Assembly (NCBI GenBank): GCA_963675755.2 | Contig: CAXXMD010000002.1 | Coordinates: 1,664,001 to 1,728,000, forward strand | Direction: 5' to 3' | DNA from: a bacterium | GTDB taxonomy: Bacteria > Zhuqueibacterota > Zhuqueibacteria > Residuimicrobiales > Krinioviventaceae | Length of the DNA: 64,000 bases | Shown here: positions 3,809-26,149 of the stretch, one piece after another | Layout of the letters: every line of letters begins with the position of its first letter | Numbering within the stretch: the first letter of the stretch is position 1 | Notes under the pieces: generated by a model | Databases searched by the model: none | The model's input: the letters and a program-made list of their open reading frames with translations, nothing else | What the model was told of the DNA's origin: nothing | Position numbers and translations under genes: made by a program

Positions 3809-3811
3809 AAC

Positions 3812-6419: not shown

Positions 6420-6522
6420 ACTACCCCTCCTTGTACTCGTTCATTCATTGAATCAAATGTAAAATGTTGATAAATTTCCGCAGGTATATTTAAAAACAAT
6501 CCCCTTGAATTCAAAATTTCAT

Positions 6523-6557
6523 AAAAAAGGGAAGCAAGATTAGCTCCGGCTTCCCTT
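6523..6557 (-). terminator. Probable intrinsic terminator of 6646..9258
   Basis: aagggaagc...gcttccctt stem followed by a U-run on the minus strand. Confidence 0.6.
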
Positions 6558-6571
6558 AATAATATATCACT

Positions 6572-6643
6572 TCTCGTTCATGAGCTCTGCCCAGTAACGA
6601 TCTTATTTATTGGCCCCAGGATAAAACCCTGAAACCAGAATAG
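6572..6643. repeat. Decayed REP-like doublet related to 3619..3808
   Basis: tctcgttcatgagctctgcccagtaacga and ttattggccccagg...gaaaccagaat resemble the elements downstream of the paralog. Confidence 0.5.
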
Positions 6644-9598: not shown

Positions 9599-10504
9599 AT
9601 GGGGAATACAATGGAAAGTAAAGCTGGTCAAGAAATTCGTGCGTTTCATATTTTTCTTGTCATTTTATATATACTCTCATTTATTTCAATCATTTACTTT
9701 TTTTATAAAGGCTGGGATTATTACTCCACTCCCTTTCCCGAAAGACCCCGCCATGACGGTTACACCCTCTTGAAACCCGGTGGAGATTACGGACATGGAT
9801 TTGGCATTATTGGTTCACTCATGATGCTTGTTATGTTATTGTACTCTATACGCAAGCGTTCGCAAATATTTTCAAAACTTGGAAATATTACCAAGTGGCT
9901 TGACATTCATATCTATCTTGGAATTTTTGGTCCCTTGTTAATTATACTGCACAGTTCATTCAAAGTATATGGCCTGGTTGCAATCAGCTTTTACTCTATG
10001 CTGGCGGTTGCACTTAGTGGAATAATTGGCCGTTATCTGTATTTACAAATCCCCCATAATATTCAGGGACACGAGTTGTCATTACTTGAACTCAAAAACA
10101 TGGATACTCTACTTTCAGAAAAATTAAAAACCGAGTTTGATTTTTCAGATGAAATGATTTCGAAACTGGAGCATTTGACCAAAAGCAGCCACCTTGAATC
10201 CCGCAATTCAATGGTTTTTCTGGTTAAATTGTTATTGGATGATATATACAGAGCCAGAGTTTTCCGCAAATTTAAAAAAGAAAATGCTTTTATAAAGAAA
10301 TTGCCACCAAAACAGGTAAAAGACCTTGTAAAAATAGCACGCAATAAAGTGATCCTTCATCGTAGAATTCTTGCATTAAATAAAATACAACAGATCTTTC
10401 ACTATTGGCACGTTATTCATAAACCTTTTGCTATCATTATGATCATAATCATGTTTGTTCATATTGCAATTGCAATCACATTTGGATATAAATGGATTTT
10501 CTAA
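9599..10504 (+). CDS. His-rich polytopic membrane protein, putative cytochrome b-like partner of multiheme cluster
   Basis: About 5 TM helices with His in or near membrane segments (GHGFG, WLDIHIYLG, LHSS, YWHVIHKP, VHIAI); first gene of the cytochrome operon. Confidence 0.65.
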   Translation: MGNTMESKAGQEIRAFHIFLVILYILSFISIIYFFYKGWDYYSTPFPERPRHDGYTLLKPGGDYGHGFGIIGSLMMLVMLLYSIRKRSQIFSKLGNITKWLDIHIYLGIFGPLLIILHSSFKVYGLVAISFYSMLAVALSGIIGRYLYLQIPHNIQGHELSLLELKNMDTLLSEKLKTEFDFSDEMISKLEHLTKSSHLESRNSMVFLVKLLLDDIYRARVFRKFKKENAFIKKLPPKQVKDLVKIARNKVILHRRILALNKIQQIFHYWHVIHKPFAIIMIIIMFVHIAIAITFGYKWIF

Positions 10505-10505
10505 A

Positions 10506-12185
10506 ATGAAAGCACAAATCTTTGCTGCACTGCTCCTGCTTTTATCGATACCTGCCTTTGCACAATTGTCACCGGGAAAACTGCACCAATCCCATGCGGA
10601 TCTGGAAGGTCTGGAAAACTGTTCCAATTGTCATCAATTTAAAAGAAAAATAAGTGCTGACAATTGCCTGGATTGCCACACAATATTAAATAATAGAATT
10701 GCATCCGGTAAGGGCCTACATGCCAACAACGAGTATAATGAATGTGAAAAATGCCATATAGAACATCAGGGCCGTGATTATGATCTGGTATACTGGCCTG
10801 ATGGAAAAGACAATTTTAAACATGAACTGACAGGATATCATCTAGAAGACAAGCATTCACAACTCAATTGCAGCCAGTGCCATCAATCCAAAAACATAAC
10901 CAACAAAGCACTGTTTCTTGAAAAGAATAAAGATTTAAATAAAACCCTGCTGGGCCTTGATCAGGATTGCCTTTCGTGCCACATGGATGAACATCGTTCT
11001 CAATTTACTCAGGAATGTACTAATTGCCATACTATGGAGGGTTGGAAGCCTGCTAATAAATTCAATCATCAAAACACAAATTTCATATTAACCGGAAAAC
11101 ACCAGCAAGTGGATTGCGGAAAATGCCACCCACAAGTCACTGACAATAAATACAATAACCATCCTTCTTTTTCAAAATACACCCATCTCGAGTATCAAAA
11201 TTGCGTCAACTGCCATCAGGATGTACATAACAACAAATTCGGTCCTAATTGCGAATCCTGCCACAATACAGCAGGATGGAAAACAGTGAACCGAAACCAG
11301 TTTGATCATAACCGTACCTCTTTCCCATTAAAAGGGAAACACATCACAACGGCTTGTGAACAGTGTCATTTACCCGGAATGCCTATTAAAATTAACCAAT
11401 ATGACAGGTGTGTTGATTGTCATACAGATTACCATAAAAACCAGTTTACCAAAATCGAACATATTGGTAATTGTGAACAATGCCACACAGAACAGGGCTT
11501 TACTCCCGCTCTTTTTACAATTGAAAAGCATAACAGTCTGAATTTCCATTTGGAGGGTAGTCATAAAGCAGTTCCTTGTATAGCCTGCCACAAAAAAACC
11601 AATACCGGCACCGACTATGAAACCATTCAATTCTATTATCCTGATAAAAAATGCAGTTCCTGCCACAAAGATCCACATAACGGTCAAGTTAACAAATTCA
11701 CCACAAAGCAGGGATGTGAAGCATGCCATTCGGTTGCCAGTTGGTATACAATCAATTTTGATCACAATCAAACAAAATTCGCTCTCGAGGGTCGTCATAA
11801 AAATGTTTCCTGCGTACAATGCCACGTGGAAGAGGATCTGTCGAACTACAAAACCTATGCATTTGTTAACCTCGCATCAGATTGCCAGTCATGTCACAAT
11901 GATGTTCACCTGGGGCAATTTCGGGAAGACCGGCTTGTAGACGGAAAAAATCACACCAACTGTGACAGATGCCATACTCCCGCAAACTGGATTGCAGAAA
12001 AGTTTGAGCACAATAGAGACGCATCATTCAAACTTGATGGTGCTCACCAGTCAGTCCCATGTAATGACTGTCATAAAGAATTATCATTAAAAGGCAACAA
12101 TTTTAGATTATATAAACCCCTGCGCTCGGATTGCAAATTCTGTCATACACCTTCTAAAAAAGTCAATGATAACGGGTCTAACTAA
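10506..12185 (+). CDS. Secreted multiheme cytochrome c, 20 CxxCH motifs
   Basis: ATG at 10506 begins signal peptide MKAQIFAALLLLLSIPAFA; 20 CxxCH counted; repeated FdH..T.F.L.G.H modules. Confidence 0.93.
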   Translation: MKAQIFAALLLLLSIPAFAQLSPGKLHQSHADLEGLENCSNCHQFKRKISADNCLDCHTILNNRIASGKGLHANNEYNECEKCHIEHQGRDYDLVYWPDGKDNFKHELTGYHLEDKHSQLNCSQCHQSKNITNKALFLEKNKDLNKTLLGLDQDCLSCHMDEHRSQFTQECTNCHTMEGWKPANKFNHQNTNFILTGKHQQVDCGKCHPQVTDNKYNNHPSFSKYTHLEYQNCVNCHQDVHNNKFGPNCESCHNTAGWKTVNRNQFDHNRTSFPLKGKHITTACEQCHLPGMPIKINQYDRCVDCHTDYHKNQFTKIEHIGNCEQCHTEQGFTPALFTIEKHNSLNFHLEGSHKAVPCIACHKKTNTGTDYETIQFYYPDKKCSSCHKDPHNGQVNKFTTKQGCEACHSVASWYTINFDHNQTKFALEGRHKNVSCVQCHVEEDLSNYKTYAFVNLASDCQSCHNDVHLGQFREDRLVDGKNHTNCDRCHTPANWIAEKFEHNRDASFKLDGAHQSVPCNDCHKELSLKGNNFRLYKPLRSDCKFCHTPSKKVNDNGSN

Positions 12186-14083
12186 TGAAAGCTGTATCTA
12201 TGAAATATTTATTATTTCTACTTTTACTGCTGAATTCAATGTTGTTAGCGGTAACCAGTCCTCATGGGGATATAAAAATACCCTGCGAAACCTGTCATAC
12301 TCCTGCTAACTGGCAGGTTGACAGGGAAACCCTGAAATTTGATCATAACAGCACAGGGTATCCGTTAACGGGTGTGCATAGCCAGACTGACTGTAAAGAT
12401 TGCCATGAAAGCTTGGTTTTTCATCAAACCGGTGTGCAATGTATGGATTGCCATACAGATATTCACCTGGGACAGTTGGGTAAAGAATGTGAATCCTGCC
12501 ATACCCCCTTAAACTGGGAAAACCGACAGGACTTGCTAAAGGACCACTCTCTATTACGCTTTCCCCTGTATGGCGCACATGAACGCATTGATTGCGACGA
12601 CTGTCACCATACCGGTTTGACAGAATACGCCAACACCCCTGTTGAATGTATCTATTGCCATGCAGATGACTATAACGCTACCCAAAATCCTGATCATAAA
12701 GAAGCACAATTTCCAACAACCTGTGATGACTGCCACCCCATACAATCTCTTTCCTGGCAAACCCGTGAATTTGATCATTCATTTTACCCTTTGACCGGTG
12801 CGCATCAAAATGTATCCTGCATGGATTGCCACCAGGGCACATATAACAATACGCCCAATACATGTTACGGCTGCCATGACACGGATTTTGCGGCTACCAG
12901 TGATCCTAACCATCAGGCATTTGGATTCGATACAGACTGTTCACAATGTCACACCACAGATACCTGGCCCCGGACTGACTTTGACCACTATCAGACATCC
13001 GGTTTTGAATTGATTGGCGTACACCAGACATTACAATGCAGTCAATGCCATATTAACAATAAAGTGACCGGATTACAAAGGGATTGTTATGGCTGCCATT
13101 TAACAGATTATAATTCCGTCAAAGAACCTGACCATCAACTTGGCCAATATCCTCACGAATGTACAATGTGCCATAACGAGAATACCTGGAGCCCTGCAAC
13201 ATTTGATCATAACCAGACCGGATTTCCCCTTACCGGTTCTCACCAGGCTGTTGAATGCACAGATTGTCACGAAAATAATGTTTATGCCGGCACCCCCTCA
13301 GATTGTTACTCGTGTCACGAACCGGACTTCAAGTCGGCAACCGAACCCAATCACGTCACCGGCAATTTTGATCATACGTGCACCATCTGTCATTCCACAA
13401 CCGCGTGGTCGCCTGCAACTTTTGATCATAACCAGACAGGATTTCCCCTTACCGGTGCTCACCAGGCTGTTGAATGTTCGGATTGCCATGAAAACAACGT
13501 TTATGCCGGTACACCTTCAGATTGCTACTCGTGTCACGAACCGGAATTTAAATCCGTGACCGAACCCAATCACGTCACCGGTAATTTTGATCACGTGTGC
13601 ACCATCTGTCACTCCACAACCGCGTGGTCGCCAGCAACATTTGATCATAACCTGACGAATTTTCCGCTTACCGGAGCGCACACAACAGCAGCTTGTCTGG
13701 ATTGCCATGAGAACGGTTATACCAATACACCATCGGATTGTTTTTTCTGTCATGAAACCGAGTACAACAATACAACAGATCCCAATCATAAAGCTTCTCA
13801 ATTCCCTGTTACCTGTCAGGATTGTCACAATACAAACAACTGGGAGCAAACCACCTGGGACCATGATGCCCGGTATTTCCCGATATATTCCGGCGAGCAT
13901 CGCGGAGAATGGGATGCCTGCTCTGACTGTCACACCAATTCATCAAATTATACCGCATTTGAATGCATCAACTGCCATGCGCATCAAAAATCTGAAATGG
14001 ACAACGAACATGATGAAGTAAGAAATTATCAATATCTAAGTACGGCTTGTTATAATTGTCATCCAAATGGGAAAGAAGATTAA
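12185..14083 (+). CDS. Secreted multiheme cytochrome c, 25 CxxCH motifs
   Basis: Signal peptide; 25 CxxCH counted; TAATG overlap with both neighbours. Confidence 0.93.
   Translation: MKAVSMKYLLFLLLLLNSMLLAVTSPHGDIKIPCETCHTPANWQVDRETLKFDHNSTGYPLTGVHSQTDCKDCHESLVFHQTGVQCMDCHTDIHLGQLGKECESCHTPLNWENRQDLLKDHSLLRFPLYGAHERIDCDDCHHTGLTEYANTPVECIYCHADDYNATQNPDHKEAQFPTTCDDCHPIQSLSWQTREFDHSFYPLTGAHQNVSCMDCHQGTYNNTPNTCYGCHDTDFAATSDPNHQAFGFDTDCSQCHTTDTWPRTDFDHYQTSGFELIGVHQTLQCSQCHINNKVTGLQRDCYGCHLTDYNSVKEPDHQLGQYPHECTMCHNENTWSPATFDHNQTGFPLTGSHQAVECTDCHENNVYAGTPSDCYSCHEPDFKSATEPNHVTGNFDHTCTICHSTTAWSPATFDHNQTGFPLTGAHQAVECSDCHENNVYAGTPSDCYSCHEPEFKSVTEPNHVTGNFDHVCTICHSTTAWSPATFDHNLTNFPLTGAHTTAACLDCHENGYTNTPSDCFFCHETEYNNTTDPNHKASQFPVTCQDCHNTNNWEQTTWDHDARYFPIYSGEHRGEWDACSDCHTNSSNYTAFECINCHAHQKSEMDNEHDEVRNYQYLSTACYNCHPNGKED
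13187..13650 (+). repeat. Intragenic 219-bp (73-aa, three-heme) tandem repeat
   Basis: WSPATFDHN begins at 13187, 13406 and 13625; the first two units are nearly identical in DNA and protein. Confidence 0.9.
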
Positions 14084-14886
14084 TGAAAACAGCATTTAAA
14101 ATCTTGATTTTCCTCAGTATTCCTGCAGCATTTATTATCAATTCTGTGCACTCGGAAGACATACCCCACAAGGAATTGAAACTGGAATGCAGCAATTGTC
14201 ACCTGACAGAAAACTGGAATACCATTACCTTTGACCACAAGTCAACACGATTTCCACTGGATGGCAGGCACCAAAACCTGGAGTGCGTTGACTGCCACAA
14301 TCTTGAGGATTTTTCACAAATCAGGATGGAATGCAAACAATGTCACCTCGATGTGCACCAGGGGAAATTAACATATTCCTGTGACCAGTGTCATACAACT
14401 CTGGGGTGGCAGGTCAAAGATATTTTCAAAGTCCATGCCAATACAACATTCCCGGTACTGGGCGCGCACAGTCGTTTGGATTGCGATGCCTGTCATAAAT
14501 CAGAGATTGTGGGTGAATTTACCCGAATTCAATCCGATTGTTATACCTGCCATGAACAGGATTACAAAAACACGACTGATCCCTCACACCAGAATTTTGG
14601 ATTCAATCACAGATGCGAAGATTGCCACAGTATGCTTGCCTGGCTTCCGGCAATGTTTGCCGAGCACGAATCCCGCTTCCCCATCTCTTCCGGTGCGCAT
14701 GCGGGTGAATGGGAAAATTGCAATATCTGCCATACCAATCCCGGTAATTTCCAGATATTCAGTTGCCTCAACTGTCACGAGCATAATCAATCCAGTATGG
14801 TTGGGGAACATGATGAAATAAGTGGATTCAGCTATAATAGTGATGCGTGTTACCGTTGTCATCATGATGGCAAAGCGGAGGATTAA
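14083..14886 (+). CDS. Secreted decaheme cytochrome c, 10 CxxCH motifs
   Basis: ATG at 14083 (MKTAFKILIFLSIPAAFII); 10 CxxCH; N- and C-termini resemble those of the 25-heme protein (CYRCHHDGKAED vs CYNCHPNGKED). Confidence 0.92.
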   Translation: MKTAFKILIFLSIPAAFIINSVHSEDIPHKELKLECSNCHLTENWNTITFDHKSTRFPLDGRHQNLECVDCHNLEDFSQIRMECKQCHLDVHQGKLTYSCDQCHTTLGWQVKDIFKVHANTTFPVLGAHSRLDCDACHKSEIVGEFTRIQSDCYTCHEQDYKNTTDPSHQNFGFNHRCEDCHSMLAWLPAMFAEHESRFPISSGAHAGEWENCNICHTNPGNFQIFSCLNCHEHNQSSMVGEHDEISGFSYNSDACYRCHHDGKAED

Positions 14887-14888
14887 TC

Positions 14889-16487
14889 ATGAATTTTATA
14901 AAAAATATTATTTTCTTTTTGATTTTGGTTTCCATTTCGAGTATTTCCGCGCAAGTTTCTGTTAAGGACTTTACCATTAAATATATCTCGAATGAAAACA
15001 TTTATATTGATGGCGGTAATTTAGATGGACTTGCAGTTGGAGATACAATAATCGTAATGCGCAAAAACACCCGAATAGCGGTCATGACGATTAATTACAC
15101 AGCAGATCATTCAGCGGCATGTACAATTGTATCTGAAAATATTAAAGTTCAGCAGGGAGACTTGGCAAGACCGTTGGTTCTACGTCAACAGGAAAAATCC
15201 GAAACCGTGTCCCCTCCGCTCAAGACAAGAAAAACCACGCTGCGACAAAAGACCCAGACAAAACAAAATGAAATGAGAATCAGAGGCAGCGTTTCTTTGC
15301 AATGGTACCATTTTGAGGACATGTCTGAAGGGAATTTCAGTTTTGATCAACCGGGTGGGCGATTAAATCTAAGAATGCAGAATGTATTCACCAAAAACCT
15401 GAATTTCAGGATCAAGACCAAAAGCCGCTATAACAAACGAATGACCCATCTAAGCGGTACAACAGCCAAAAACGAATGGCGTAACCGCATTTATACCGTC
15501 AGTTTGAGCTTTGATGATGAAAATGCAGCAATTAACTATAAACTGGGACGTATCATCTCGAATAAATTTAGCGGCATCGGTTATATAGACGGTGCATTGG
15601 TTCAACACAATGCAACCGAAAATCTGCGCTATGGTGCTTTTGCCGGTACGCAGCCCCAGTGGCAATATGCAGATTTCCAAACATCTATACAAAAATATGG
15701 TGCATATATTAATTATTTACAGGGCCAATATGGAGGCAAGCGATTTGAATCTACCCTGGCCGCTGCGGGAGAATATCATGGCGCGGAAGTCAGCCGCGAG
15801 TTTGTCTATCTGCAAAACAGCTATTCTTCTCAACATTTTAATCTCTATAGCAGTGCAGAGCTCGATGTAAACCGTGACTGGCGCAAAGATAAAAGCGGCG
15901 AAAATATATCCCTCACCAATCTTTATCTCAACTTTTCTTATACAATTACCCAAAGCATTACAACGGGATTGAGTTTTGACGACCGGAAAAATTATTATAC
16001 ATACGAAATCCGTTCTGTTGCAGACAGCCTGTTTGATGATGCCATGCGCTACGGGGCCCGCTGGAACCTGAATCTCCGTTTGCCGGGCAATTATCGGGTG
16101 TATGCCAACGCAGGCGTACGTGCCAGAGAAACCGATACGGAAAATACATATTCTGGGGCATTGGGCGTCAGTAAAAACAATATTACTGATCACAACCTGT
16201 ATGTGAATTTTTATGGATCAGGATTTCAAAATTATTTTTCGACAGGATTTAATGTATCTTTAAGAATGGGCAAATACTTTAGGGCCGGACACAATGTAAA
16301 CATGAGTTATGGAAACTATTCGTATGTGTTGAGCACAACCAATACGACACGTTCTAATCACTGGCTGCGTTTAAACGGAAATTTACAAATTTTCAGACAC
16401 ATTTATCTCGATGAGAATTATGAATATATCTGGGGATCCGATTCACCAGGACACCGGATATATATTGAAATGGGTTACCGATTCTAG
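14889..16487 (+). CDS. Putative outer-membrane beta-barrel (porin) with N-terminal soluble domain
   Basis: Signal peptide, alternating amphipathic beta-strands rich in Tyr/Gly/Asn, C-terminal IEMGYRF barrel signature. Confidence 0.75.
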   Translation: MNFIKNIIFFLILVSISSISAQVSVKDFTIKYISNENIYIDGGNLDGLAVGDTIIVMRKNTRIAVMTINYTADHSAACTIVSENIKVQQGDLARPLVLRQQEKSETVSPPLKTRKTTLRQKTQTKQNEMRIRGSVSLQWYHFEDMSEGNFSFDQPGGRLNLRMQNVFTKNLNFRIKTKSRYNKRMTHLSGTTAKNEWRNRIYTVSLSFDDENAAINYKLGRIISNKFSGIGYIDGALVQHNATENLRYGAFAGTQPQWQYADFQTSIQKYGAYINYLQGQYGGKRFESTLAAAGEYHGAEVSREFVYLQNSYSSQHFNLYSSAELDVNRDWRKDKSGENISLTNLYLNFSYTITQSITTGLSFDDRKNYYTYEIRSVADSLFDDAMRYGARWNLNLRLPGNYRVYANAGVRARETDTENTYSGALGVSKNNITDHNLYVNFYGSGFQNYFSTGFNVSLRMGKYFRAGHNVNMSYGNYSYVLSTTNTTRSNHWLRLNGNLQIFRHIYLDENYEYIWGSDSPGHRIYIEMGYRF

Positions 16488-16513
16488 TTTTATTACGCTG
16501 ATTATTAAACAGG

Positions 16514-17842
16514 ATGTACACTATGGAATCACTTTTTATATGGATAGCAGCAATACTTTTAATGGGGATTGTATTCATCCCCTATTTTATAAAATTCCGT
16601 AAACAACAAAAAGCGGATTTTGACAGACACCAGGAAGCGGTTTCTTTGGGAGCAGATAAACCCATAGCGCAATTCCCGCAAATCGATCTCATGCGATGCT
16701 TTGGGTGCGGTTCTTGTGTAAGAGCGTGTCCTGAAGGAGATGTCTTGGGTGTTGTAATGGGCAAATCCACTGTAATCAACGGATTAAAATGCGTGGGGCA
16801 TGCGCGTTGCGCTGAAGCGTGCCTGGTCAATGCCATAACCGTAGGACTGGGTGACATTAAACAACGGGATGACATTCCCGTTATGGATGATTATAATGAA
16901 ACCTCGATTCCGGGAATATACATAGCCGGAGAACTGGGTGGATTGGCGCTTATTAAAAACGCCATTGGGCAAGGCAGAAAGGTGATTGAAAAGATTGCGT
17001 CATCCCTTTCACAACAGGATGATATTCTGGATGTCATCATTGTCGGTGCAGGGCCTGCGGGAATCAGCGCCGCGTTGACTGCCATTCAGCACAGACTCTC
17101 TTATCTGATCCTTGATCAACAGGGTTTTGGGGGTACAATATTGCAATATCCCCGCAAAAAAGTGGTCATGACCCATCCCGTAGAAATACCGCTTTACGGC
17201 TGGTTAAATAACAGTGAATACACAAAAGAAGAACTGCTTGCAATCTGGGACGATATTCATCAACAGTATCATTTAAACATTAAAATCGGTGAAAAATTAG
17301 AGCATGTAACCCGGCATGATGGGTATTTTAATATCAGAACGCAGAACGGAAGCTTTCGGGCACAGCGGATTGTTCTGGCACTGGGACGCCGTGGCACGCC
17401 CAGAAAACTGGGTGTCCCCGGAGAAGAGTTGTCCAAAGTCATGTATAAACTGGTTGATGCCGAAAGCTTTCAAAATAACCATATTCTGGTTGTGGGTGGT
17501 GGTGACAGTGCCATTGAGGCTGCTGTAGGCCTTGCCATGCAGCCCGGCAATACCGTAACTATCTCTTATCGCAAATCTAAATTTTTTAGATTAAAAAAGA
17601 AAAACCAGCACAATATAGACCAACTTGTTAATGACGGCAAGGTTAATATAATCTTTGATTCAAATGTAAAAGAAATTAATACAGATTCTGTATTCGTGCA
17701 AACGGATAAAGAAATAATTCAACTCGACAATGATTATATATTGATCTTTGCCGGGGGTGAACCGCCATTCAAGCTGTTAAAGGATATGGGCATTACCTTT
17801 GGCGGCAGTGAAAAAGCAGAGGTATTACGGGAGGTTTTTTAA
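16514..17842 (+). CDS. Membrane-anchored 4Fe-4S dicluster + FAD/NAD(P)-dependent oxidoreductase (thioredoxin-reductase fold)
   Basis: N-terminal TM helix; CFGCGSCVRACP and CVGHARCAEAC; GAGPAG FAD motif; VGGGDSA NAD(P) motif. Confidence 0.88.
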   Translation: MYTMESLFIWIAAILLMGIVFIPYFIKFRKQQKADFDRHQEAVSLGADKPIAQFPQIDLMRCFGCGSCVRACPEGDVLGVVMGKSTVINGLKCVGHARCAEACLVNAITVGLGDIKQRDDIPVMDDYNETSIPGIYIAGELGGLALIKNAIGQGRKVIEKIASSLSQQDDILDVIIVGAGPAGISAALTAIQHRLSYLILDQQGFGGTILQYPRKKVVMTHPVEIPLYGWLNNSEYTKEELLAIWDDIHQQYHLNIKIGEKLEHVTRHDGYFNIRTQNGSFRAQRIVLALGRRGTPRKLGVPGEELSKVMYKLVDAESFQNNHILVVGGGDSAIEAAVGLAMQPGNTVTISYRKSKFFRLKKKNQHNIDQLVNDGKVNIIFDSNVKEINTDSVFVQTDKEIIQLDNDYILIFAGGEPPFKLLKDMGITFGGSEKAEVLREVF

Positions 17843-17920
17843 GCGGGATTAACTCACTCCTACACTTGCTCAATAGAAATATTCACTAAATTTTATTTAC
17901 TGATGACTGAGAACTTGAAT

Positions 17921-17964
17921 CCTTCCTTCAATACTCTGCCTGTTGCATATACCTGGGTACTGTT
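17921..17964. repeat. Strongly decayed copy of the insert found in the tRNA-linked repeat
   Basis: ccttcaatactctgcctgttgcatatacctggg aligns with ccttcgatactctgcatgcggcagatactcagg at about 24682 and 24974. Confidence 0.55.
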
Positions 17965-18023
17965 ATTCTATAATTTGCGCACCACCTATTTGGCTGCTCT
18001 TACAAATCATTTGAAAATTTTCC

Positions 18024-20120
18024 TTATTTCAATAATAAACATTTTTCTATTTTTTGAAAACCATTTGCTTTCATTTTTATAAAATATGTTCCGGAAGGAT
18101 AAACAGATGCATTCCACATAATACGATAATAACCTGCAGGTGTCTCTTTATTATAGATTATCTCAACAAGCTGCCCTTGAATATTATAAATCGAAATTTG
18201 TATGTCAGACAACTGTGGAACTGAAAAATGGATTTGAGTTTCAGGATTGAATGGATTCGGGTAATTTTTTTCCAAAGCATATTCAAAGGGTAAACTTTTA
18301 ATTTCACTATCAACGAATGTAATTACTTCAAACAAGGGTCGTTTCCAGACACTTCCAAATTGAGTTCCAGCATAAATATTTAAATCTGAAATTACAAGAG
18401 ATTGCACACGTTGACGAAAAAAATCTGCACCAGTGGAAATATCCATCCATGATTCCCCAGAGTCAGTCGAAAGAAAAACACCATTAGCGGTTCCGAGAAA
18501 CAGATTGGTACCTGATGAAACAAAAGAACTTGTATGAAAATTGGTTAAACCAGTATTAACTTGAGTCCAGGTAACTCCCTTATCAGCAGAACGATATATA
18601 CCACATCCATCAGCAGTAGCTACAAACAGGTAAGAATTTAAAACAATTAACGATTCGACAAGTTCGCAAGTTATACCTGTATTTATTGTTGACCAGGTTT
18701 CACCCCTGTCGGTTGTCAGCAAAACACCTCCTCCATCAGTTCCTACAAAAAGATGAGAATCCATTACAGCTAACGAAGTAACAAAATAATTAGACATACC
18801 ATAACTTATATTTTCCCAGGTATCGCCGTTATTTTTGGAAAGATACACACCTTTGGTAGTAGTTCCGGCAAATAGCATTGAATCCATAACAACCAGAGAA
18901 TTAATTGTAGATTGCTCTAAGCCGTTGTTTAATTTTTCCCAAGAAGAACCATTTAGCATTGACCGATAAACAAAACAACCGCTGGTTGCAACAAAAATAT
19001 TTGAATCTTTGACTGCAAAATCTTTAATTCTTAAACAATCCAGTCCCAAACTGGTCACATCCCAGAAATCGCCTTTATTAAAAGAAGTAAAAATGCCTCC
19101 AGACTCTGTTCCCGCAAAAAGCAATGAATCTGTGGCAGCCAATGCAACAATTGAATGCATTTGTAATCCTTGATTCACAGTCTCCCATGTAGCGCCAGCA
19201 TCAGTGGACAATAATACACCCACATTTTCGGTTCCGGCTAACAGATTGGTATCAATAATACTTAGAGCCTGAATTTTATCATATGCAAACCCCGTATCAA
19301 AAGTTGTCCAAGAATCTCCATTATTTTCTGATGATAAAATTTCCCCTCTGGCTGTACCGGCAAAAATAGTAGAATCCTTAACAACCATACACTCGATTGA
19401 GGGTTTCATTGTTCCTGAATGTAATGCTTGCCATGATACACCATTGTCTGTGGAACGAAAAATACCTTCAAAAGTCCCTGCATATATAGTTGTATCAGAG
19501 TTTATTAAACAACGTATATGATCTGCCCATATACCATTGTTAGAGTTTTCCCAGGATTCACCATTGTCTGTCGATACAAAGATGCCATTGCCATGACTAC
19601 CGGCAAAAATAATAGTATCCAGAACTGCAATTGTATTAATACGGGTATTGGTTAATCCTGTATTCACCTCTTCCCAGGAATTCCCCTTATCCGCAGAACG
19701 AAAAATGCCTCCTCCATAGGTTCCTGCAAATAACATTGTATCATACACTACAAGCGTACGAACATCCAGCTCTGTCAAGCCAGAACTTGCATGAGTCCAT
19801 GTTGTACCATTATCCGATGAATAATATATACCATCATGCCCTGTTCCCGCAAACAAGATTGAATCTAAAAAAACAATCGTATTTACATCCTGCATTAGAT
19901 ATTCGGGACTCGTCTTGCTCCAGGATTTGGCATTATTTGTAGACAGAAAAACACCGTCACCATGAGTGCCAATAAAAATGTTTGTATCGGAAACAGCAAA
20001 GGCTCTTACATCTCCACCAAAGGGTCCGTTTGTCTGCAACCATTGAGAATAACTGGTATTAAAAATTGCACCTATAAACAGGAGAAAAAAGCAAAAGATA
20101 AAAAAATAAGCTTTTTGCAC
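18024..20120 (-). CDS. Secreted BNR/Asp-box beta-propeller protein with C-terminal sorting (T9SS-type) domain
   Basis: GTG start, signal peptide, about 14 repeats of FAGT..G.F.S.D.G.TW, C-terminal NYPNPFNP...YNIQGQLV...LLLK. Confidence 0.85.
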   Translation of the reverse strand: MQKAYFFIFCFFLLFIGAIFNTSYSQWLQTNGPFGGDVRAFAVSDTNIFIGTHGDGVFLSTNNAKSWSKTSPEYLMQDVNTIVFLDSILFAGTGHDGIYYSSDNGTTWTHASSGLTELDVRTLVVYDTMLFAGTYGGGIFRSADKGNSWEEVNTGLTNTRINTIAVLDTIIFAGSHGNGIFVSTDNGESWENSNNGIWADHIRCLINSDTTIYAGTFEGIFRSTDNGVSWQALHSGTMKPSIECMVVKDSTIFAGTARGEILSSENNGDSWTTFDTGFAYDKIQALSIIDTNLLAGTENVGVLLSTDAGATWETVNQGLQMHSIVALAATDSLLFAGTESGGIFTSFNKGDFWDVTSLGLDCLRIKDFAVKDSNIFVATSGCFVYRSMLNGSSWEKLNNGLEQSTINSLVVMDSMLFAGTTTKGVYLSKNNGDTWENISYGMSNYFVTSLAVMDSHLFVGTDGGGVLLTTDRGETWSTINTGITCELVESLIVLNSYLFVATADGCGIYRSADKGVTWTQVNTGLTNFHTSSFVSSGTNLFLGTANGVFLSTDSGESWMDISTGADFFRQRVQSLVISDLNIYAGTQFGSVWKRPLFEVITFVDSEIKSLPFEYALEKNYPNPFNPETQIHFSVPQLSDIQISIYNIQGQLVEIIYNKETPAGYYRIMWNASVYPSGTYFIKMKANGFQKIEKCLLLK

Positions 20121-20215
20121 TTATTACTCCCAATTTGTAAAAATATCAAAATGTGTATTTTAAAACAAAAAAAGGCATGTTTTATATTTCATGATAAACA
20201 ATAATCAAACTAGTC

Positions 20216-20335
20216 GAGTCCGGACTAAAGGGCGATACACTTAAAGCTAGCCCGGCCCTTCGAAACTCTGCCTACGGCATATACTCAGGGCCCGTTTTCT
20301 CCTAAAACGTTAAAAGGCCGCTTAATTAATGAACC
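20216..20335. repeat. Degenerate copy of the long tRNA-linked repeat unit
   Basis: gagtccggac...gcgatacact...cccggcccttcgaaactctgcctacggcatatactcagg...cctaaaacgttaaaaggccgc aligns over about 110 nt with the unit at about 24641-24745. Confidence 0.75.
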
Positions 20336-20724
20336 TTGATTAAATATCCCCAAAGGTTGAATTTTCAAACTTTTAATAAAATCTTGAATCCATGATATGA
20401 GCTGAAGAAAATGAAATAGATCAAGATGTAATCATTTAAAAACCAGTGTTTTAAGGGATTTCTAAATCAGGATATCATTATCCTAATAGTATCAGCAAGT
20501 CTTGCGAATACATAAAGTTTGTATTTCTCTGATAAAATACGAAGCTCGAGTTTTTTGGATTTCAAATTATATTCCGGAATTAATATGCATATTTATTTGT
20601 ATATTGATGTATACCAAAGGGCTCAACACGAATTTTCACACTGGACATTAATTTTGCGTTGCGGTATTATGTCGCCATTCACGCCTGTTAACATTCATGT
20701 TATATAGTTGAATCAAATTAACAT

Positions 20725-21285
20725 ATGAAACTATACATTAAATACATGGTAAGCTTGCGATGCAAGATGATGGTAGAAGAAGAGTTGAAAAAACTTGGAC
20801 TCCATCACTCAAAAATTGAATTGGGTATGGTTGATATTATAGAAAACCTATCCATAGAACAACGTGAGCAATTTAAAAAAAACCTGTCAAGGTCTGGTCT
20901 TGAGCTGCTGGACGATAAAAAGAGTATCCTGATTGAAAAAATTAAAAATGTAATTATAGAAATGATCCATCATTCTAATGAATTACCCAAAGTAAATTAT
21001 TCGGATTATATCAGTGAACAATTAGGCTATGATTATACCTATCTGGCAAATACATTTTCAGAGGTCAAGGGCATAACCATACAGCAGTATATTATCAATC
21101 ATAAAATCGAAAAGGTCAAAGAATTACTTTTATATGACGAGTTGAATCTTACGGAAATTTCCTATAAATTACACTATAGCAGTGTTGCCCATTTGTCCAA
21201 TCAATTCAAAAAAGTCACAGGCCTATCTCCTTCCTTTTACAAACAATTGAAACAAAAACGTAAAAAGAACCTGGAAAACATGTGA
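20725..21285 (+). CDS. AraC family transcriptional regulator with N-terminal HMA-like domain
   Basis: KYMVSLRCKMMV N-terminus; YDYTYLANTFS and LTEISYKLHYSSVAHLSNQFKKVTG AraC HTH. Confidence 0.92.
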   Translation: MKLYIKYMVSLRCKMMVEEELKKLGLHHSKIELGMVDIIENLSIEQREQFKKNLSRSGLELLDDKKSILIEKIKNVIIEMIHHSNELPKVNYSDYISEQLGYDYTYLANTFSEVKGITIQQYIINHKIEKVKELLLYDELNLTEISYKLHYSSVAHLSNQFKKVTGLSPSFYKQLKQKRKKNLENM

Positions 21286-21288
21286 TAT

Positions 21289-21317
21289 ATGTAACATTTA
21301 GCCATTATTATGTAACA
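21289..21317 (+). promoter_or_regulatory. Candidate AraC-type binding site (direct repeat)
   Basis: ATGTAACA at 21289 and 21310, 21 bp apart, just after the regulator's stop codon and upstream of the DUF1611 operon. Confidence 0.45.
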
Positions 21318-21494
21318 CAATAATGGTTTGACAAGCCTACATTCATATGCAAGTATTTCTTGTCTATCTCGACAAATCCAGATTGTTTGGGACCTCTCGT
21401 ATAGTTATGTGTACCTGTTTTTATTTTTTTTTTTACAATAACAGCTAATCTTGGGTTTATAAATCAATCTATTCTCCTTAACCAACCCAACCAC

Positions 21495-22667
21495 ATGAAG
21501 CTACAAGTAAATACTTTAAAATACGTATATTCAATTATGAATACTGGTATTAACCTAATCAAAGGGTACCCATTGAAAACAAAAGCAATTGTTTATAGTG
21601 AAAATGAATTCGGCAAGTTGGATGGCAAAGTTGCTAATGGACTGGCCAGACAATCAGAAAAATATGATATTCTTGGTATAATCGACAGTTCCAAAGCAGG
21701 GCTTGATGCCGGAGAGTATCTTGATGGTATAAGGAACGGAATTCCGATCTTTAAAAATATTAAAGATGCGATTAAAAAGCTGGGGTTTGTTCCCGAATCT
21801 TTTATTTATGGCATTGCCCCTCTCTCAACTTTGCTTGATGATGACCAAAGGAATATATTATTTGATGCTATGAAAACAGGCATGAACATTATAAGCGGAC
21901 TGCCCGAATACTTTACAGATGATAAAGAATTTATACAAAAAGCACAAAAATATAATGTGAAAATAGTCGATGTCAGAAAACCCCCGGCACGTAAAGATTT
22001 GCATCTATTCTCTGGACGTATTGTTAATGTCAATGTACCGGTCATCACTGTATTGGGCACAGATTGTGCCGTTGGCAAAAGGACTACCGCACTCAAAATT
22101 GTTGAAGCCTTGAGACAAAATGGTTTAAAGGCCTCATTCGTAACAACAGGGCAAACCGGTTTGCTTCAGGGATCAAAGTTTGGTATAGCGGTAGATGTTT
22201 TAACAACTGGATACTCTACCGGAGAAGTTGAAAATGCAGTTGTAAATGCTTATGAACAAGAAAATCCGGATATAATCGTGGTCGAAGGTCAGGGCTCTTT
22301 GGGGCATCCGGCATTTACCTCTTCGGTTGCAATTATAAGGGGGTCTATGCCAAATGCAATTATACTTCAACACCCGCCAAAAAGAAAAAGCCGGTGCGAT
22401 TTTTCCAGTTTTCCCATGCCCACACTTGAAAGTGAGATCGAACTCTTGCAAGTATTTTCTAAATCAAAAGTTATTGCCATCACAATCAATCATGAAGACA
22501 TGACTGACAATGAAGTGAGTACTAAAATAAAAGAATATGAATATAGATTTGAAATCCCTGCAACTGATGTTTTAAAATTTGGATGTGATAAAATTGTTGA
22601 ACAGTTGTTTAACACTTTTCCGGAATTACAGGAAAGCGCTCCGCTGGTATGTCAACTCCAAGATTAG
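21495..22667 (+). CDS. DUF1611 family P-loop protein (DgcN-like); true start may be TTG 21573
   Basis: GKVANGL, GTDCAVGKRTT, TGQTG and VEGQGSLGHPAF motifs. Confidence 0.88.
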   Translation: MKLQVNTLKYVYSIMNTGINLIKGYPLKTKAIVYSENEFGKLDGKVANGLARQSEKYDILGIIDSSKAGLDAGEYLDGIRNGIPIFKNIKDAIKKLGFVPESFIYGIAPLSTLLDDDQRNILFDAMKTGMNIISGLPEYFTDDKEFIQKAQKYNVKIVDVRKPPARKDLHLFSGRIVNVNVPVITVLGTDCAVGKRTTALKIVEALRQNGLKASFVTTGQTGLLQGSKFGIAVDVLTTGYSTGEVENAVVNAYEQENPDIIVVEGQGSLGHPAFTSSVAIIRGSMPNAIILQHPPKRKSRCDFSSFPMPTLESEIELLQVFSKSKVIAITINHEDMTDNEVSTKIKEYEYRFEIPATDVLKFGCDKIVEQLFNTFPELQESAPLVCQLQD

Positions 22668-23713
22668 AAATAGACCTCAATAAAATCACTCATAATGCAA
22701 CAATGCTGAAAGAGCTGTATGGTTCAAAAGGCATTGATGTTATTGGGGTGACAAAAGCCATTTGCGGAGAACCTGTCATTGCTGATGCTTTACTACAAGC
22801 AGGTATAAACATCCTTGCTGATTCAAGAATAGACAATATCATAAAAATGCGCAATTCAGGAATAGATGCCAGGTTTATGCTTTTAAGGACTCCCTGCCTC
22901 AGTCAGTCCCAAGGTGTTGTAAAATTTGCGGACATTAGTCTGAATTCTGAACTCATTGTTATTCAAAAACTTGCACATTTTGCAATACAATCTCAAACCA
23001 CGCATCAAATCATTTTAATGGTAGAACTAGGAGATTTAAGAGAAGGTCTCATGCCAAAGGATTTAGATCGTACTATTCAACAGGTATTAAAGCTTGAAGG
23101 TATTGAGCTTGTAGGATTAGGGACAAATCTGGCCTGTTTTGGCGGCATTAAACCTGATAATGAAAAAATGGAAATGCTGTCATCCATTGCTATAGATGTT
23201 GAAAAAAAATTCGACCTTTTATTGGAATTCATTTCCGGTGGCAACTCGGCTAATTATAATTGGTTCATGTCAGCTACAAATATAGGAAAAATTAACAACC
23301 TGCGGCTTGGAGAATCAATTTATTTGGGATGTGAGACACTTGACAGGGAACCCATTGCCGGATTGGTAACTGACGCGTTTACCCTGGTAGCAGAAGTGAT
23401 TGAATCTAAAACAAAACCCTCTCTTCCCTATGGAAAAACAGGTCAGGATGCCTTTGGAAACACACCTGTATTTCAAGACCAAGGTTCTATGAGGAGAGCT
23501 ATATTGGGGATTGGTTTGCAGGATATTCCGGTTTCTGGATTAACTCCCAGAATGGATATTGATATTCTGGGAGCAAGTAGTGATCACATGATCATTAACA
23601 CAAAAAACATAAAACTACAGGTGGGAGACGAATTGACATTTAATTTGAATTATGGAGCTTTGCTTGCAGCAATGACTTCGTCATACGTATATAAAGAGGT
23701 TAAAAGCATATGA
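22649..23713 (+). CDS. Alanine/ornithine racemase family PLP-dependent enzyme
   Basis: GVTK PLP lysine, ADSRIDN, MVELGDLREG, GTNLAC, SGGNS, NNLRLGES and GASSDH. Confidence 0.9.
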   Translation: MSTPRLEIDLNKITHNATMLKELYGSKGIDVIGVTKAICGEPVIADALLQAGINILADSRIDNIIKMRNSGIDARFMLLRTPCLSQSQGVVKFADISLNSELIVIQKLAHFAIQSQTTHQIILMVELGDLREGLMPKDLDRTIQQVLKLEGIELVGLGTNLACFGGIKPDNEKMEMLSSIAIDVEKKFDLLLEFISGGNSANYNWFMSATNIGKINNLRLGESIYLGCETLDREPIAGLVTDAFTLVAEVIESKTKPSLPYGKTGQDAFGNTPVFQDQGSMRRAILGIGLQDIPVSGLTPRMDIDILGASSDHMIINTKNIKLQVGDELTFNLNYGALLAAMTSSYVYKEVKSI

Positions 23714-24384
23714 ATACCCGAGAATATTGCATAAAAGCTGAGCAAAAAGAAAAAAGAATCAAACAGCTTTATCCTACTTTTCCTGTCAAAGAAGATAATT
23801 CTCCACTGGTTAGTCTAAAAGATTCGGGATTTAGTTTAATGTTTGAGCCCACAATTATAGAAAATTATCAATATTTGGTAAGAGAAGCTGTTTATGAAAA
23901 AATTGGTCGCATAAGTAAAATACTGGCCCGGGACGATAAAGAATTGATCATTCGTTCAGCCTGGAGATCTTTTGAACATCAGCGTTTTTTATGGGAAAAT
24001 AAAGTTGTCTTTATGCAACAAACACATCCGGACAAATCATTGGAAGAAATAGCAGAGATCGTTTCATTTTATATCGCTCCTGATACCTTGTCGATGCATG
24101 CAACCGGTGGCGCTGTGGATGCGTTGATATTCGATTTGAAAAACAATTGTGTTATGGATTTTGGAACGAATGAGGGTTTAAAAATAGACCTGAATGAAAG
24201 ATGTTACCCCTACCATCCGGATATATCATTCAATGCCCAAAAGAACAGAAAATTATTAATTGATCTGTTTGAAAATGAAGATTTTGTCGTTGATGTTATA
24301 GAATACTGGCATTTCAACTATGGCAATGCCTGTTGGGCAATAGAAACAGGAAATGAAGCAATATATGATGTTATAAATCCGTAA
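23710..24384 (+). CDS. D-alanyl-D-alanine dipeptidase (M15/VanX-like)
   Basis: SAWRS, SMHATGGAVD, MDFGT and EYWHF zinc motifs. Confidence 0.85.
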   Translation: MNTREYCIKAEQKEKRIKQLYPTFPVKEDNSPLVSLKDSGFSLMFEPTIIENYQYLVREAVYEKIGRISKILARDDKELIIRSAWRSFEHQRFLWENKVVFMQQTHPDKSLEEIAEIVSFYIAPDTLSMHATGGAVDALIFDLKNNCVMDFGTNEGLKIDLNERCYPYHPDISFNAQKNRKLLIDLFENEDFVVDVIEYWHFNYGNACWAIETGNEAIYDVINP

Positions 24385-24499
24385 ATACCCATTTATCCTT
24401 TAATCATTCCGATTATTTACATAAAAATATATTCAATTGTGTGACACCTTTTCCAATTCAAGAACGTCATTAATGCATTGCGAAGGCGAGGTGGCCTCT

Positions 24500-25179
24500 T
24501 GTTGCTGGAATGATAAAACCAGACTCGGTACCACTGGACGATACTTAATACTCTTAAACGCAAAAAGGCTATCATTTCTGATAGCCTTTCAAAGCATCCC
24601 CTAGGGGAGTCGAACCCCTGTTGCTGGAAAGATAAAACCAGAGTCGGGACCACTGGACGATACTCTCAATGTAATCCCGGCCCTTCGATACTCTGCATGC
24701 GGCAGATACTCAGGAACAGGTCCCCCTAAAACGCAAAAAGGCTATCATTTCTGATAGCCTTTTAAAGCATCCCCTAGGGGAGTTGAAAATCTGTTGCTGG
24801 AATGATAAAACCAGAGTCGGGACCACTGGATGATACTCTAATCCCCCTAAACGCAAAAAGGCCGCCTAACTTGGCAGCCTTTTAAAGCATCCCCTAGGGG
24901 AGTCGAACCCCTGTTGCTGGAAAGAAAAACCAGAGTCGGGACCACTGGACGATACTCTCAATGTAATCCCGGCCCTTCGATACTCTGCATGCGGCAGATA
25001 CTCAGGAACAGGTCCCCTTAAAACGCAAAAAGGCTATCATTTCTGATAGCCTTTTAAAGCATCCCCTAGGGGAGTTGAAAATCTGTTGCTGGAATGATAA
25101 AACCAGAGTCGGGACCACTGGATGATACTCTAATCCCCCTAAACGCAAAAAGGCCGCCTAACTTGGCAGCCTTTAAAAG
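24500..25179 (-). repeat. Tandem tRNA-Glu-linked repeat array (pseudo-tRNA + terminator units)
   Basis: gcatcccctagggg at 24594, 24767, 24887 and 25059, plus 25179 in the real tRNA; spacings 173/120/172/120; partial unit at 24500. Each unit carries a hairpin (aaaaaggctatcatttctgatagcctt or aaaaaggccgcctaacttggcagcctt). Confidence 0.92.
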
Positions 25180-25251
25180 CATCCCCTAGGGGAGTCGAAC
25201 CCCTGTTGCAGGAATGAAAATCCTGAGTCCTAACCACTAGACGAAGGGGAC
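25180..25251 (-). tRNA. tRNA-Glu (TTC)
   Basis: Minus strand GTCCCCTTCGTCTAGTGGTTAGGACTCAGGA-TTTTCAT-TCCTGCAACAGGGGTTCGACTCCCCTAGGGGATG folds as a cloverleaf; CCA not encoded. Confidence 0.95.
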
Positions 25252-25278
25252 GTCTAATTATTTTTTGGTGTAAATCAG

Positions 25279-25352
25279 GGTGAGTGACGGGACTTGAACC
25301 CGCGACGACCAGGACCACAACCTAGCGCTCTACCAACTGAGCTACACCCACC
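25279..25352 (-). tRNA. tRNA-His (GTG)
   Basis: Minus strand GGTGGGTGTAGCTCAGTTGGTAGAGCGCTAGG-TTGTGGT-CCTGGTCGTCGCGGGTTCAAGTCCCGTCACTCACC, with G-1 and C discriminator. Confidence 0.95.
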
Positions 25353-25414
25353 ATATTGCTGAGCAGAAAGCTCTCGTACATAGCTATATAATATATAATT
25401 TTTTTTAATTCTAG

Positions 25415-26149
25415 TCAAGTATTTTTTGTATTTTTTAACAACTTTTTTACACGGTCCGGGTAATTACTGATAATTGCTTCTACCCCACTGTCAATTAATG
25501 GCAGAATCTCTGTTTCTGTATTGGGTGTCCACGTCCAGAGGCGCTTTTGCATACTATTCCAAAGTGCTGCATTCTTTTCAGAAATCAGTGTAAATTTTGG
25601 ACAAACATAATCAAATCTTCTGGTATCTGCTTTTTCAAAATCGCTCATTTTTGAAAAAATCAATCCTACAGCAATATGCGGGGCCAAATCTTTAATACTG
25701 TACAAAATTGTATCTGAAAAAGAAGTAATTATAAAGTCGTTAAAGCGGGTCCGTTCCAGCAATTGCAGCAAGGGTTTTACAATATCCAGATCAGCAGCAG
25801 TATGATATTTCACCTCTATATCCAGCAACATTTTACCTTTGACCTGTTCAATCACATTATCAAACAAGGGCACGGTCTCATCCCCAAATTCCGGTGAAAA
25901 CCAGCTACCCGCATCGCCCTGTTTCAACTGCTCCAGCGTAAACTTTTTCAAATGGCCCTTGAGGTTGGTGGTACGATCGAGTTTTTCGTCATGCATAACC
26001 ACAATGCGGTTATCTGCGGTGAGCTGCACATCCAGTTCAATACCATCCGCACCCATTTCAATGGCCTTTTCAAAAGCGGCATGTGTATTTTCCGGTGCGT
26101 ATCCGGATGCGCCACGATGAGCAATGTTTAAAATATCATGATTCGACAT
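25415..26149 (-). CDS. Glycerophosphodiester phosphodiesterase
   Basis: IAHRGAS..APENT, IELDVQLT.D, HD..LDRTT, IEVK and WT.N motifs. Confidence 0.93.
   Translation of the reverse strand: MSNHDILNIAHRGASGYAPENTHAAFEKAIEMGADGIELDVQLTADNRIVVMHDEKLDRTTNLKGHLKKFTLEQLKQGDAGSWFSPEFGDETVPLFDNVIEQVKGKMLLDIEVKYHTAADLDIVKPLLQLLERTRFNDFIITSFSDTILYSIKDLAPHIAVGLIFSKMSDFEKADTRRFDYVCPKFTLISEKNAALWNSMQKRLWTWTPNTETEILPLIDSGVEAIISNYPDRVKKLLKNTKNT

Follow-up and report, generated by a model that had tools for sequence, protein, structure and literature searches.

Integrons carry the integrase IntI next to an array of gene cassettes, each followed by a site of the attC type. Inserts flanked by direct repeats of a shared segment can also arise by Campbell-type single crossover or homology-facilitated illegitimate recombination. 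tRNA genes are presented as hotspots for genomic islands in excerpts of PMC4891358, and repetitive extragenic palindromic (REP) elements, their paired forms (REPINs) and REP-associated tyrosine transposases (RAYTs) are a known kind of element, as outlined in parts of PMC3337134 and PMC3116915. Here we analysed a locus adjacent to a tRNA-Glu gene in a 64,000-nt stretch of DNA (hereafter called the window) from a bacterium of the Krinioviventaceae. A first-pass annotation of this DNA had reported accessory genes between progressively decayed copies of a tRNA-linked repeat, and it had proposed that cassettes were added serially at the tRNA end as in an integron, with the alternative that the repeat has as its core a REP found throughout the genome.

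The picture obtained replaces this tRNA-anchored integron idea with a mostly ordinary and testable one, composed of a tandem array of pseudo-tRNA and terminator units, a new REP family and an acquired operon. We consider it reasonably probable that the repeats represent passive composite DNA in a plasticity zone on the tRNA side and not a dedicated capture system. Comparisons were made with a set of 31 genomes, comprising the genome under study (G000, whose main contigs are cited as C2 and C3), that of a sister species of the same genus (G001, a single contig) and 29 relatives outside the genus. Four public sequencing runs were used in the form of assembled contigs, runs X1 and X2 being identical to the window and run X4 being G001-like.

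A tandem array of pseudo-tRNA and terminator units

The array is headed by a functional tRNA-Glu (TTC) gene on the minus strand (25179-25251), which is called by ARAGORN and scores 59.2 bits with the Rfam tRNA model. A tRNA-His (GTG) gene is found next to it on the same strand (25278-25351; ARAGORN, 61.1 bits with the Rfam tRNA model). Tandem Repeats Finder, a repeat search and a unit profile together delimit a minus-strand tandem array of ~120-nt units at 24434-25178. Each unit consists of a degenerate tRNA-Glu with a replaced 5' acceptor strand, followed by an intrinsic-terminator hairpin and a T-run. From our reading of the sequence by eye, the acceptor stem can therefore not form in these units. 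ARAGORN called none of them as a tRNA, and one unit reached 21.8 bits with the Rfam tRNA model over model positions 10-63, for a gathering score of 29. Terminator-like hairpins were identified on the minus strand at three positions (25174-25149, 25055-25028 and 24763-24736).

Tandem Repeats Finder reported a period of 292 nt over 24500-25244, with 2.6 copies and 93% matches, and the repeat search revealed six 114-nt copies from 24434 to 25251, spaced by 119-173 nt, the last of which is the tRNA-Glu gene itself. Two unit types alternate, one of them harbouring an extra insert of ~60 nt. With the unit profile, the array units have E-values between 1e-24 and 1e-38. Among the 31 genomes, the array was seen only in those of the two sister species, with eight units of ~120 nt in G001, all devoid of the insert.

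The units carry traces of their history. All of them, as well as the detached unit described below, share the derived letters 'cgatac' where the genuine tRNA-Glu reads 'cgaagg', and such shared derived states point to one putative founder unit. At another position, every unit of G000 reads 'ttgcTgga' and every unit of G001 'ttgcGgga', the tRNA being 'ttgcAgga' in both species. These species-specific letters indicate that the arrays have probably undergone ongoing homogenisation, or separate expansions, since the two species split, a turnover that the detached unit would have escaped.

A lineage-specific family of REP-type hairpins

The insert found in one unit type is a REP of 45-60 nt with the organization CCGGnCC-TTCGATAC-variable hairpin-ACTCAGGnnCCGG. 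A hidden Markov model (HMM) built from 16 REPs located elsewhere in the genome recognizes two of them in the array, at 24677-24720 and 24969-25012 on the plus strand, both with an E-value of 2.1e-9; they are the two copies of a tandem duplication.

Strict members of the family were required to have the two conserved loop strands, full pairing of the 3-bp arm and no fewer than three of the four outer pairs. The genome harbours 49 of them, distributed on C2 and C3, and the reversed-genome control none. The 3-bp arm is fully paired in 49 of 49 cases, in the compensatory types CCC/GGG (23 copies), TGC/GCA (11), GCC/GGC (8) and TCC/GGA (7). The outer stem thus covaries, as in a short imperfect palindrome with conserved arms and compensatory changes. 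Three of the 49 REP centres fall inside open frames of at least 150 residues, as opposed to 91.6% of 500 random positions. The alternative offered by the first-pass annotation, that the core CCCTTCGA...CTCAGG is a genome-wide REP, is therefore right as far as the core is concerned, given its 49 strict copies in unrelated intergenic regions. The genome-wide search that it had called for also showed that the REP core is not confined to the locus.

A simple pattern, CCTTCGATAC-N10-40-ACTCAG, was found 49 times in G000, 17 times in G001, 4 times in G017 and once in G014, with no match in each of the remaining 27 genomes or in any of the controls. An Rfam search of positions 17000-26000 at an E-value of 1 or better returned tRNAs and one weak pseudo-tRNA, with no match for the REP. 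The REP family is lineage-specific and new, with a covarying stem. No member of this family was found within 1.5 kb of any of the four Y1_Tnp (RAYT-like) genes of the genome. We also identified a second, unrelated palindromic family, GATCGTGACGGAGAT...ATCTCCGTCACGATC, with 97 matches at up to 2 mismatches, including a dense cluster (C3:339365-343932) around the Y1_Tnp (RAYT-like) gene at C3:340749-341000.

A detached array unit and a solo REP

Two further repeat copies had been reported upstream of the array in window coordinates. The first, at 20216-20335 and in the same orientation as the array, is real. A genome-wide DNA search with the 296-nt array period matched this segment at 77% identity (query positions 45-146, E-value 4.4e-14), and this was the only match outside the array to reach past the hairpin core. 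The repeat search yielded the same copy in the same orientation, with 80% identity over 74 nt. Using the repeat search, BLAST, the HMM, the unit profile and a flank test, we delimited the feature at 20213-20335 on the plus strand. It encompasses part of the D-arm of the pseudo-tRNA, a REP (20252-20294, HMM E-value 1.9e-8) and the start of the terminator, to which 20298-20325 is 79% identical, and by eye it may extend to ~20385. A REP-free version of the unit profile matches 20213-20246 with an E-value of 0.021 in a 26-kb search.

For the flank test, the 40 nt to the left of 73 REP-anchored copies were compared in register (2,628 pairs). The left flank of the relic agrees with those of the two array copies at 26 of 40 positions, for an all-pair mean of 10.8 (standard deviation 3.3) and a score of 17 with its next best partner. 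Every array unit has this left flank, the REP-free ones and all those of G001 included, and it therefore represents array sequence and not part of a mobile REP. We conclude from these likenesses that 20213-20335 is a fragment of a REP-bearing array unit that has become detached and has decayed. G001 harbours a more decayed relic, without the REP part, at the position orthologous to 20216.

The second copy, reported at 17921-17964, stands in part. It is real as a REP core, matching 20257-20284 at 23 of 28 positions, but its flanks agree with those of the array at 10-11 of 40 positions, which is the chance level. As the array flanks are absent around it, it does not represent the long unit. We describe it as a solo REP (17922-17964, plus strand) that belongs to the same subfamily and whose right arm has decayed, located between the convergent 3' ends of an oxidoreductase gene and of the propeller gene described below. 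The family HMM gives it an E-value of 0.3, owing to the variability of the inner hairpin among family members. Sites matching 20257-20284 at 23 or more of the 28 positions number six in 13 million genome positions, all of them REPs of one subfamily, and no site reaches 21 or more in the reversed-genome control. Four of the six members of this subfamily are within 7.3 kb of each other here, two of these four resulting from the tandem duplication. With the REP HMMs we found no REP at the site of G001 orthologous to 17921, where the left-arm letters CCGGCCCTT alone are visible. Between this site and the propeller gene, G001 has ~2.5 kb of extra DNA (piece L021, 5418-8060), with open reading frames (ORFs) for a protein of 371 residues that has weak trypsin-like matches only and for one of 169 residues without a Pfam match.

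Gene content of the interval

The first-pass annotation had placed the propeller gene, and then an AraC-DUF1611-racemase-dipeptidase block, between the repeat copies, and the copies do bracket these genes. As the copy at 20216 is array-derived, the four-gene block lies between array-derived direct repeats. The gene at 18024-20120 on the minus strand encodes a BNR/Sortilin-type beta-propeller with a type A sorting domain of the type IX secretion system (T9SS) (Pfam Sortilin-Vps10, BNR and Por_Secre_tail), and the protein scores 177.4 bits with the NCBIfam entry F510_1955 family glycosylhydrolase (cut-off 175). The four genes that follow are on the plus strand and encode an AraC-family regulator (20725-21285; Pfam HTH_18 / HTH_AraC), a DgcN-like DUF1611 protein (21495-22667; Pfam DUF1611 and DUF1611_N; 164.6 bits with DgcN, below the NCBIfam cut-off of 480), an ornithine-racemase-like pyridoxal phosphate-dependent racemase (22649-23713; Pfam Ala_racemase_N; 408.7 bits with NCBIfam Orr, below the cut-off of 480) and a D-Ala-D-Ala dipeptidase-like M15 peptidase (23710-24384; Pfam Peptidase_M15 / VanY; NCBIfam PRK10178 below its cut-off). 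This operon probably serves D-amino-acid or peptide salvage. A literature search on DUF1611 together with racemase or D-glutamate turned up no paper naming DUF1611 among those listed.

The DUF1611-racemase-M15 trio has close counterparts in distant bacteria. Outside the genus, the closest DUF1611 homologues (64-66% identity) are found in metagenome-assembled genomes labelled Chlorobiota, Acidobacteriota, Thermoanaerobaculales and Hyphomicrobiales, and the trio is co-linear in all four foreign contigs examined, with 54-68% amino-acid identity. No match of the trio exceeds 39% in the 29 relatives from outside the genus. As the trio is kept at 54-68% identity in other phyla, horizontal transfer is probable, and the three-gene module was probably acquired before the two species split. 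The composition of the blocks, which the first-pass annotation had suggested comparing, deviates modestly. The G+C content at third codon positions is 0.26 for the propeller gene, 0.30-0.31 for the trio and 0.37 for the AraC gene, for 0.34-0.47 in flanking genes, and the overall G+C content is 31-39% over 17.7-24.5 kb versus 40-46% beside it.

These genes bear on the proposal of integron-like capture, in which a recombinase encoded elsewhere would insert cassettes one after the other at tRNA-derived repeats beside tRNA-Glu. Its attraction lies in the repeat copies, which have the same orientation, bracket the gene blocks and decay with distance from the tRNA, and also in two observations detailed below, the variability of the tRNA-side slot across genera and the occurrence, at tRNA-Gln and elsewhere, of small integrase-less segments flanked by direct repeats that differ between the sister species. 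The first-pass annotation was correct in that no integrase is encoded in the window. Of the 45 window ORFs scanned, none was found to encode a recombinase or transposase domain, and the four Phage_integrase (PF00589) matches of the genome are all located elsewhere, one of them beside an ordinary tRNA-Asp island. The three repeat sites differ in kind, being a solo REP with flank scores of 10-11/40, a unit relic with 26/40 and a six-unit tandem array, so that a uniform attC-type site is not apparent, as judged without a formal attC model; in addition, the core that they share is the genome-wide REP. Neither do the genes resemble single, promoterless and co-oriented cassettes, since the propeller gene is on the minus strand and the other 'cassette' is a plus-strand operon of four genes with its own AraC regulator. 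Compared with the single sister genome, that four-gene block is fixed at 92-98% identity, and the propeller segment is at 57-83% bar one window. With no recombinase domain, heterogeneous sites and mixed gene orientation, an integron-like mechanism with serial addition of cassettes is unsupported, and we regard it as highly improbable.

Variability of the tRNA-Glu slot among relatives

The tRNA-His/tRNA-Glu pair is widely kept beside DUF2809 and GDPD genes (tRNA pair in 26 and GDPD in 28 of the 31 genomes). On its other side, the ancestral downstream neighbour of tRNA-Glu is a GT2/Bac_transf glycosyltransferase gene, found here at 1317-3392 on the minus strand (identified by Pfam and by tblastn, with 54% identity to the G010 gene). 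This gene is 130-215 bp from tRNA-Glu in G002, G010 and G006, followed by AccA and ScpA genes in the latter two, and the distance is ~1 kb in G018 and ~1.5 kb in G004. In the genome under study, by comparison of synteny with other genera, a genus-specific interval of 21.8 kb (3393-25178) separates tRNA-Glu from this neighbour, and the gap is ~30 kb in G001. Thus, the genes at tRNA-Glu are indeed accessory and have accumulated there, as had been proposed.

Other genera have filled the slot differently. After tRNA-Glu, a 4.6-kb insert in G014 encodes a Type ISP restriction enzyme together with a SocA/Panacea pair (L022, 8134-12520), G005 has an Eco57I-type methylase and a T5orf172/ResIII protein (restriction-modification, helicase-type; L026, 236-4929), and G003 has a T9SS protein and polysaccharide-export genes. 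The slot is thus occupied by genes of the anti-phage type in another genus of the family, as seen in G014 and G005.

Within the genus, the gene order is conserved, G001 having in succession the oxidoreductase, propeller, AraC, DUF1611, racemase and M15 genes, the array, tRNA-Glu and tRNA-His. We found no relative in which these genes are fixed without the repeats, a situation that the first-pass annotation had named as contrary to its proposal: G001 has the genes, the array and the relic, and both genes and repeats are absent from more distant relatives. In windows of 200 nt, the nucleotide identity between the two species is 92-98% over the four-gene block. Most flanking windows are at 85-98%, the exceptions including three within the oxidoreductase gene at 74-85%. 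A divergence trough extends over 17800-20600, where all windows but one (93%) are at 57-83%. The propeller segment is within this trough, bounded by the two REP-bearing copies.

The remainder of the 21.8-kb interval includes, at 10455-17842, an operon with three multihaem cytochrome c genes (Cytochrome_C7 / MtrC-like), a gene for a protein of 532 residues without a Pfam match and the oxidoreductase gene, whose product is of the 4Fe-4S/pyridine-nucleotide type. In G018 and G009, this cytochrome/oxidoreductase operon is located on other contigs. Another short repeat type (...GGCAGAGCCTTGGAACCAG... and variants) is found at 3600-3800, immediately following the GT2 gene. From ~3685 to 6639, G001 has 8.4 kb of different DNA in place of 3 kb of the window, and 3805-6281 is related, at 76%, to the G001 stretch orthologous to 6639 onward, which suggests tandem paralogues.

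Repeat-flanked segments at other loci

We searched 40 kb on each side of all 44 tRNA genes, using each tRNA plus 100 nt downstream. At tRNA-Gln(CTG) (C3:1552512-1554666), a 146-nt direct repeat of 90% identity starts inside the tRNA and continues through the terminator and a palindromic REP. The two copies flank a spacing of 1,961 bp with RraB-like and Fib_succ_major genes, and G001 has a single copy and no insert. Downstream of this locus, we noted further REP-bounded differences between G000 and G001.

Similar arrangements exist away from tRNA genes. At C3:866739-869498, a REP-bearing direct repeat of 466 nt (97% identity) surrounds a single LRR/PKD gene, which is absent from G001, where one copy of the repeat stays. 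At C3:1445888-1448405, a REP-bearing direct repeat of 224 nt (90% identity) surrounds a gene for a protein with a T9SS tail; the corresponding locus of G001 measures ~7.3 kb instead of 2.5 kb and has different content between the repeat copies.

These loci, and the trough, help weigh the possibility that there is no causal link at all, namely that the array, the relic and the REPs are all bystanders. Illegitimate events unrelated to them would have brought in the gene blocks, and the REPs would just settle in intergenic DNA near terminators. REPs are intergenic throughout the genome, the solo REP at 17922 occupies a typical REP site between convergent genes and the gene order is the same in the sister species, all of which would be expected of bystanders. 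They would not be expected to place four of the six members of one REP subfamily within 7.3 kb, to bound the trough with two REP-bearing copies or, at two other loci, to coincide exactly with the ends of presence/absence differences for which the sister species has a single copy. We therefore hold this explanation to be rather unlikely.

The search around tRNA genes also revealed islands of the classical type. In the tRNA-Asp island (C3:582602-605216), the tRNA has an exact 49-nt copy of its 3' part 22.5 kb away, beside a Phage_integrase gene (C3:604557-605018), and in the tRNA-Met island (C2:158844-187727) a 44-nt repeat of 98% identity is 28.8 kb away. The tRNA-Glu locus could accordingly be viewed as the product of classical tandem accretion, in which one or several integrase-bearing islands entered the 3' half of tRNA-Glu and then lost their integrases and most of their DNA, leaving the pseudo-tRNA units and the relic as old att-site duplicates. 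Such events have a textbook example in this very genome at tRNA-Asp, the units do keep the 3' half of the tRNA with its downstream sequence, and integration into tRNAs leaves one complete and one partial tRNA copy, according to a passage of PMC9897764. However, the detached copy comprises the 5' D-arm part, a REP and the start of the terminator in place of the expected tRNA 3' end, and the same derived 5' replacement in all units fits the amplification of one founder and not repeated integrations. Nor was any integrase remnant seen in the 45 ORFs of the window. Tandem accretion of this kind is in our opinion decidedly unlikely.

A second pseudo-tRNA array was found downstream of tRNA-Met(CAT) (C2:478196-479372), consisting of the 3' half of a pseudo-tRNA with an extra GC hairpin and a terminator. 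Two small GIY-YIG genes (PF01541) are located between its units, and a third decayed copy is discernible by eye. The DNA that immediately follows tRNA-Lys(CTT) (C3:1940028-1940574) holds another small GIY-YIG gene, placed between 86-nt direct repeats (98% identity) of the region downstream of the tRNA, and one at C2:1863946-1864164 is flanked on each side by REPs of the CCCTTCGATAC family. We looked for a GIY-YIG gene in the window and found no trace of one.

A scenario for the tRNA-Glu locus

Beyond the observed anatomy, copy numbers, synteny and foreign affinity of the operon, we infer an order of events and a role for homologous recombination. Tandem duplication of tRNA-Glu and its terminator from a single degenerate founder would have come first, giving an array that is still turning over, and the lineage-specific REP hairpin would then have inserted into one unit type. 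Before the two species split, the horizontally acquired operon may have come between the array and one REP-bearing unit, and the unit thus cut off would have decayed into the relic at 20213-20335. A solo REP is also present (17922-17964), where the cytochrome/oxidoreductase operon and the propeller gene converge. The repeats would act as terminators and might also provide homology for RecA-type insertion, deletion and replacement of neighbouring segments. Such repeat homology would account for the fact that the two sister species diverge most in the propeller segment.

Several points weigh against this scenario. The genus is known from two species, so that a single sister genome is behind all within-genus comparisons, and the G001-like run X4 adds no independent evidence beyond it. 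The likeness of the relic flank to the array is modest: a BLAST search of the whole genome with this flank alone does not put the array first, and the profile E-value of 0.021 is valid for a 26-kb search and not genome-wide. Both the array and the relic of G001 are devoid of REPs, which implies either a loss of the REP in that species or two entries at one and the same site in G000. The trough could simply result from the rapid evolution of a surface protein, and the array may have regrown on the tRNA side or the relic may have been made by gene conversion. Finally, we saw no recombination intermediate. In the assembled contigs of the public runs, none joins 17964 to 20216 or 20335 to the array, at which short-read contigs break, and these contigs speak neither for nor against excision.

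A bolder reading for this genus draws on the repeat-flanked presence/absence differences at the other loci. Repeat-rich modules made up of a tRNA 3' part, a terminator and a REP might serve as portable homology arms by which gene-sized segments devoid of integrases would be inserted, swapped and deleted, an idea that we put forward tentatively. It is likewise a speculative suggestion that the segments carried in this way are mostly single surface-protein genes, together with the small GIY-YIG genes at tRNA-Met and tRNA-Lys. They would then form a recombinase-free cassette system with a preference for tRNA genes, of which tRNA-Glu would be an old, multi-layer case and the tRNA-Gln and LRR loci fresh ones, and this too we find doubtful at present. 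If the differences in repeat-flanked, integrase-less segments between the two sister species prove to be genome-wide, they would reveal a way in which REP-type repeats and tRNA flanks promote gene turnover in an uncultured lineage that is poor in classical mobile-element genes.

Comparison with known systems

With REP, BIME (bacterial interspersed mosaic element) and REPIN sequences, the hairpin family shares its short imperfect palindromes with conserved arms, its tens of intergenic copies and its restriction to a lineage. It differs from them in that no copy flanks any of the four Y1_Tnp genes and in its two conserved internal-loop strands (TTCGATAC and ACTCAG), which surround a freely varying inner hairpin. 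With integron cassette arrays, the locus has in common gene blocks placed between same-orientation repeats that contain a hairpin, but it has no IntI, its sites are not uniform, its genes are in mixed orientation and one block is a fixed multi-gene operon with a regulator.

With tRNA-linked islands formed by tandem accretion, the locus shares accessory DNA beside a tRNA, partial tRNA copies, a modestly deviant composition and a slot that varies in relatives, empty in some and occupied by defence genes in others. Unlike in these islands, there is no integrase here, the distal repeat is not a tRNA 3' end and the partial copies, nearly whole tRNAs with terminators, are arranged in tandem with no genes among them. 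A decayed classical tRNA island was considered and found to be a poor fit, with its distal copy lacking the tRNA 3' end and all units stemming from what appears to be one founder. With homology-anchored insertion, the locus shares inserts flanked by direct repeats, as do the tRNA-Gln (146 nt, 90% identity) and LRR (466 nt, 97% identity) loci; this is a mechanism and not a family, and the likeness is one of pattern. The locus is best accounted for by accretion at a hotspot beside the tRNA gene, with repeat homology as an aid.

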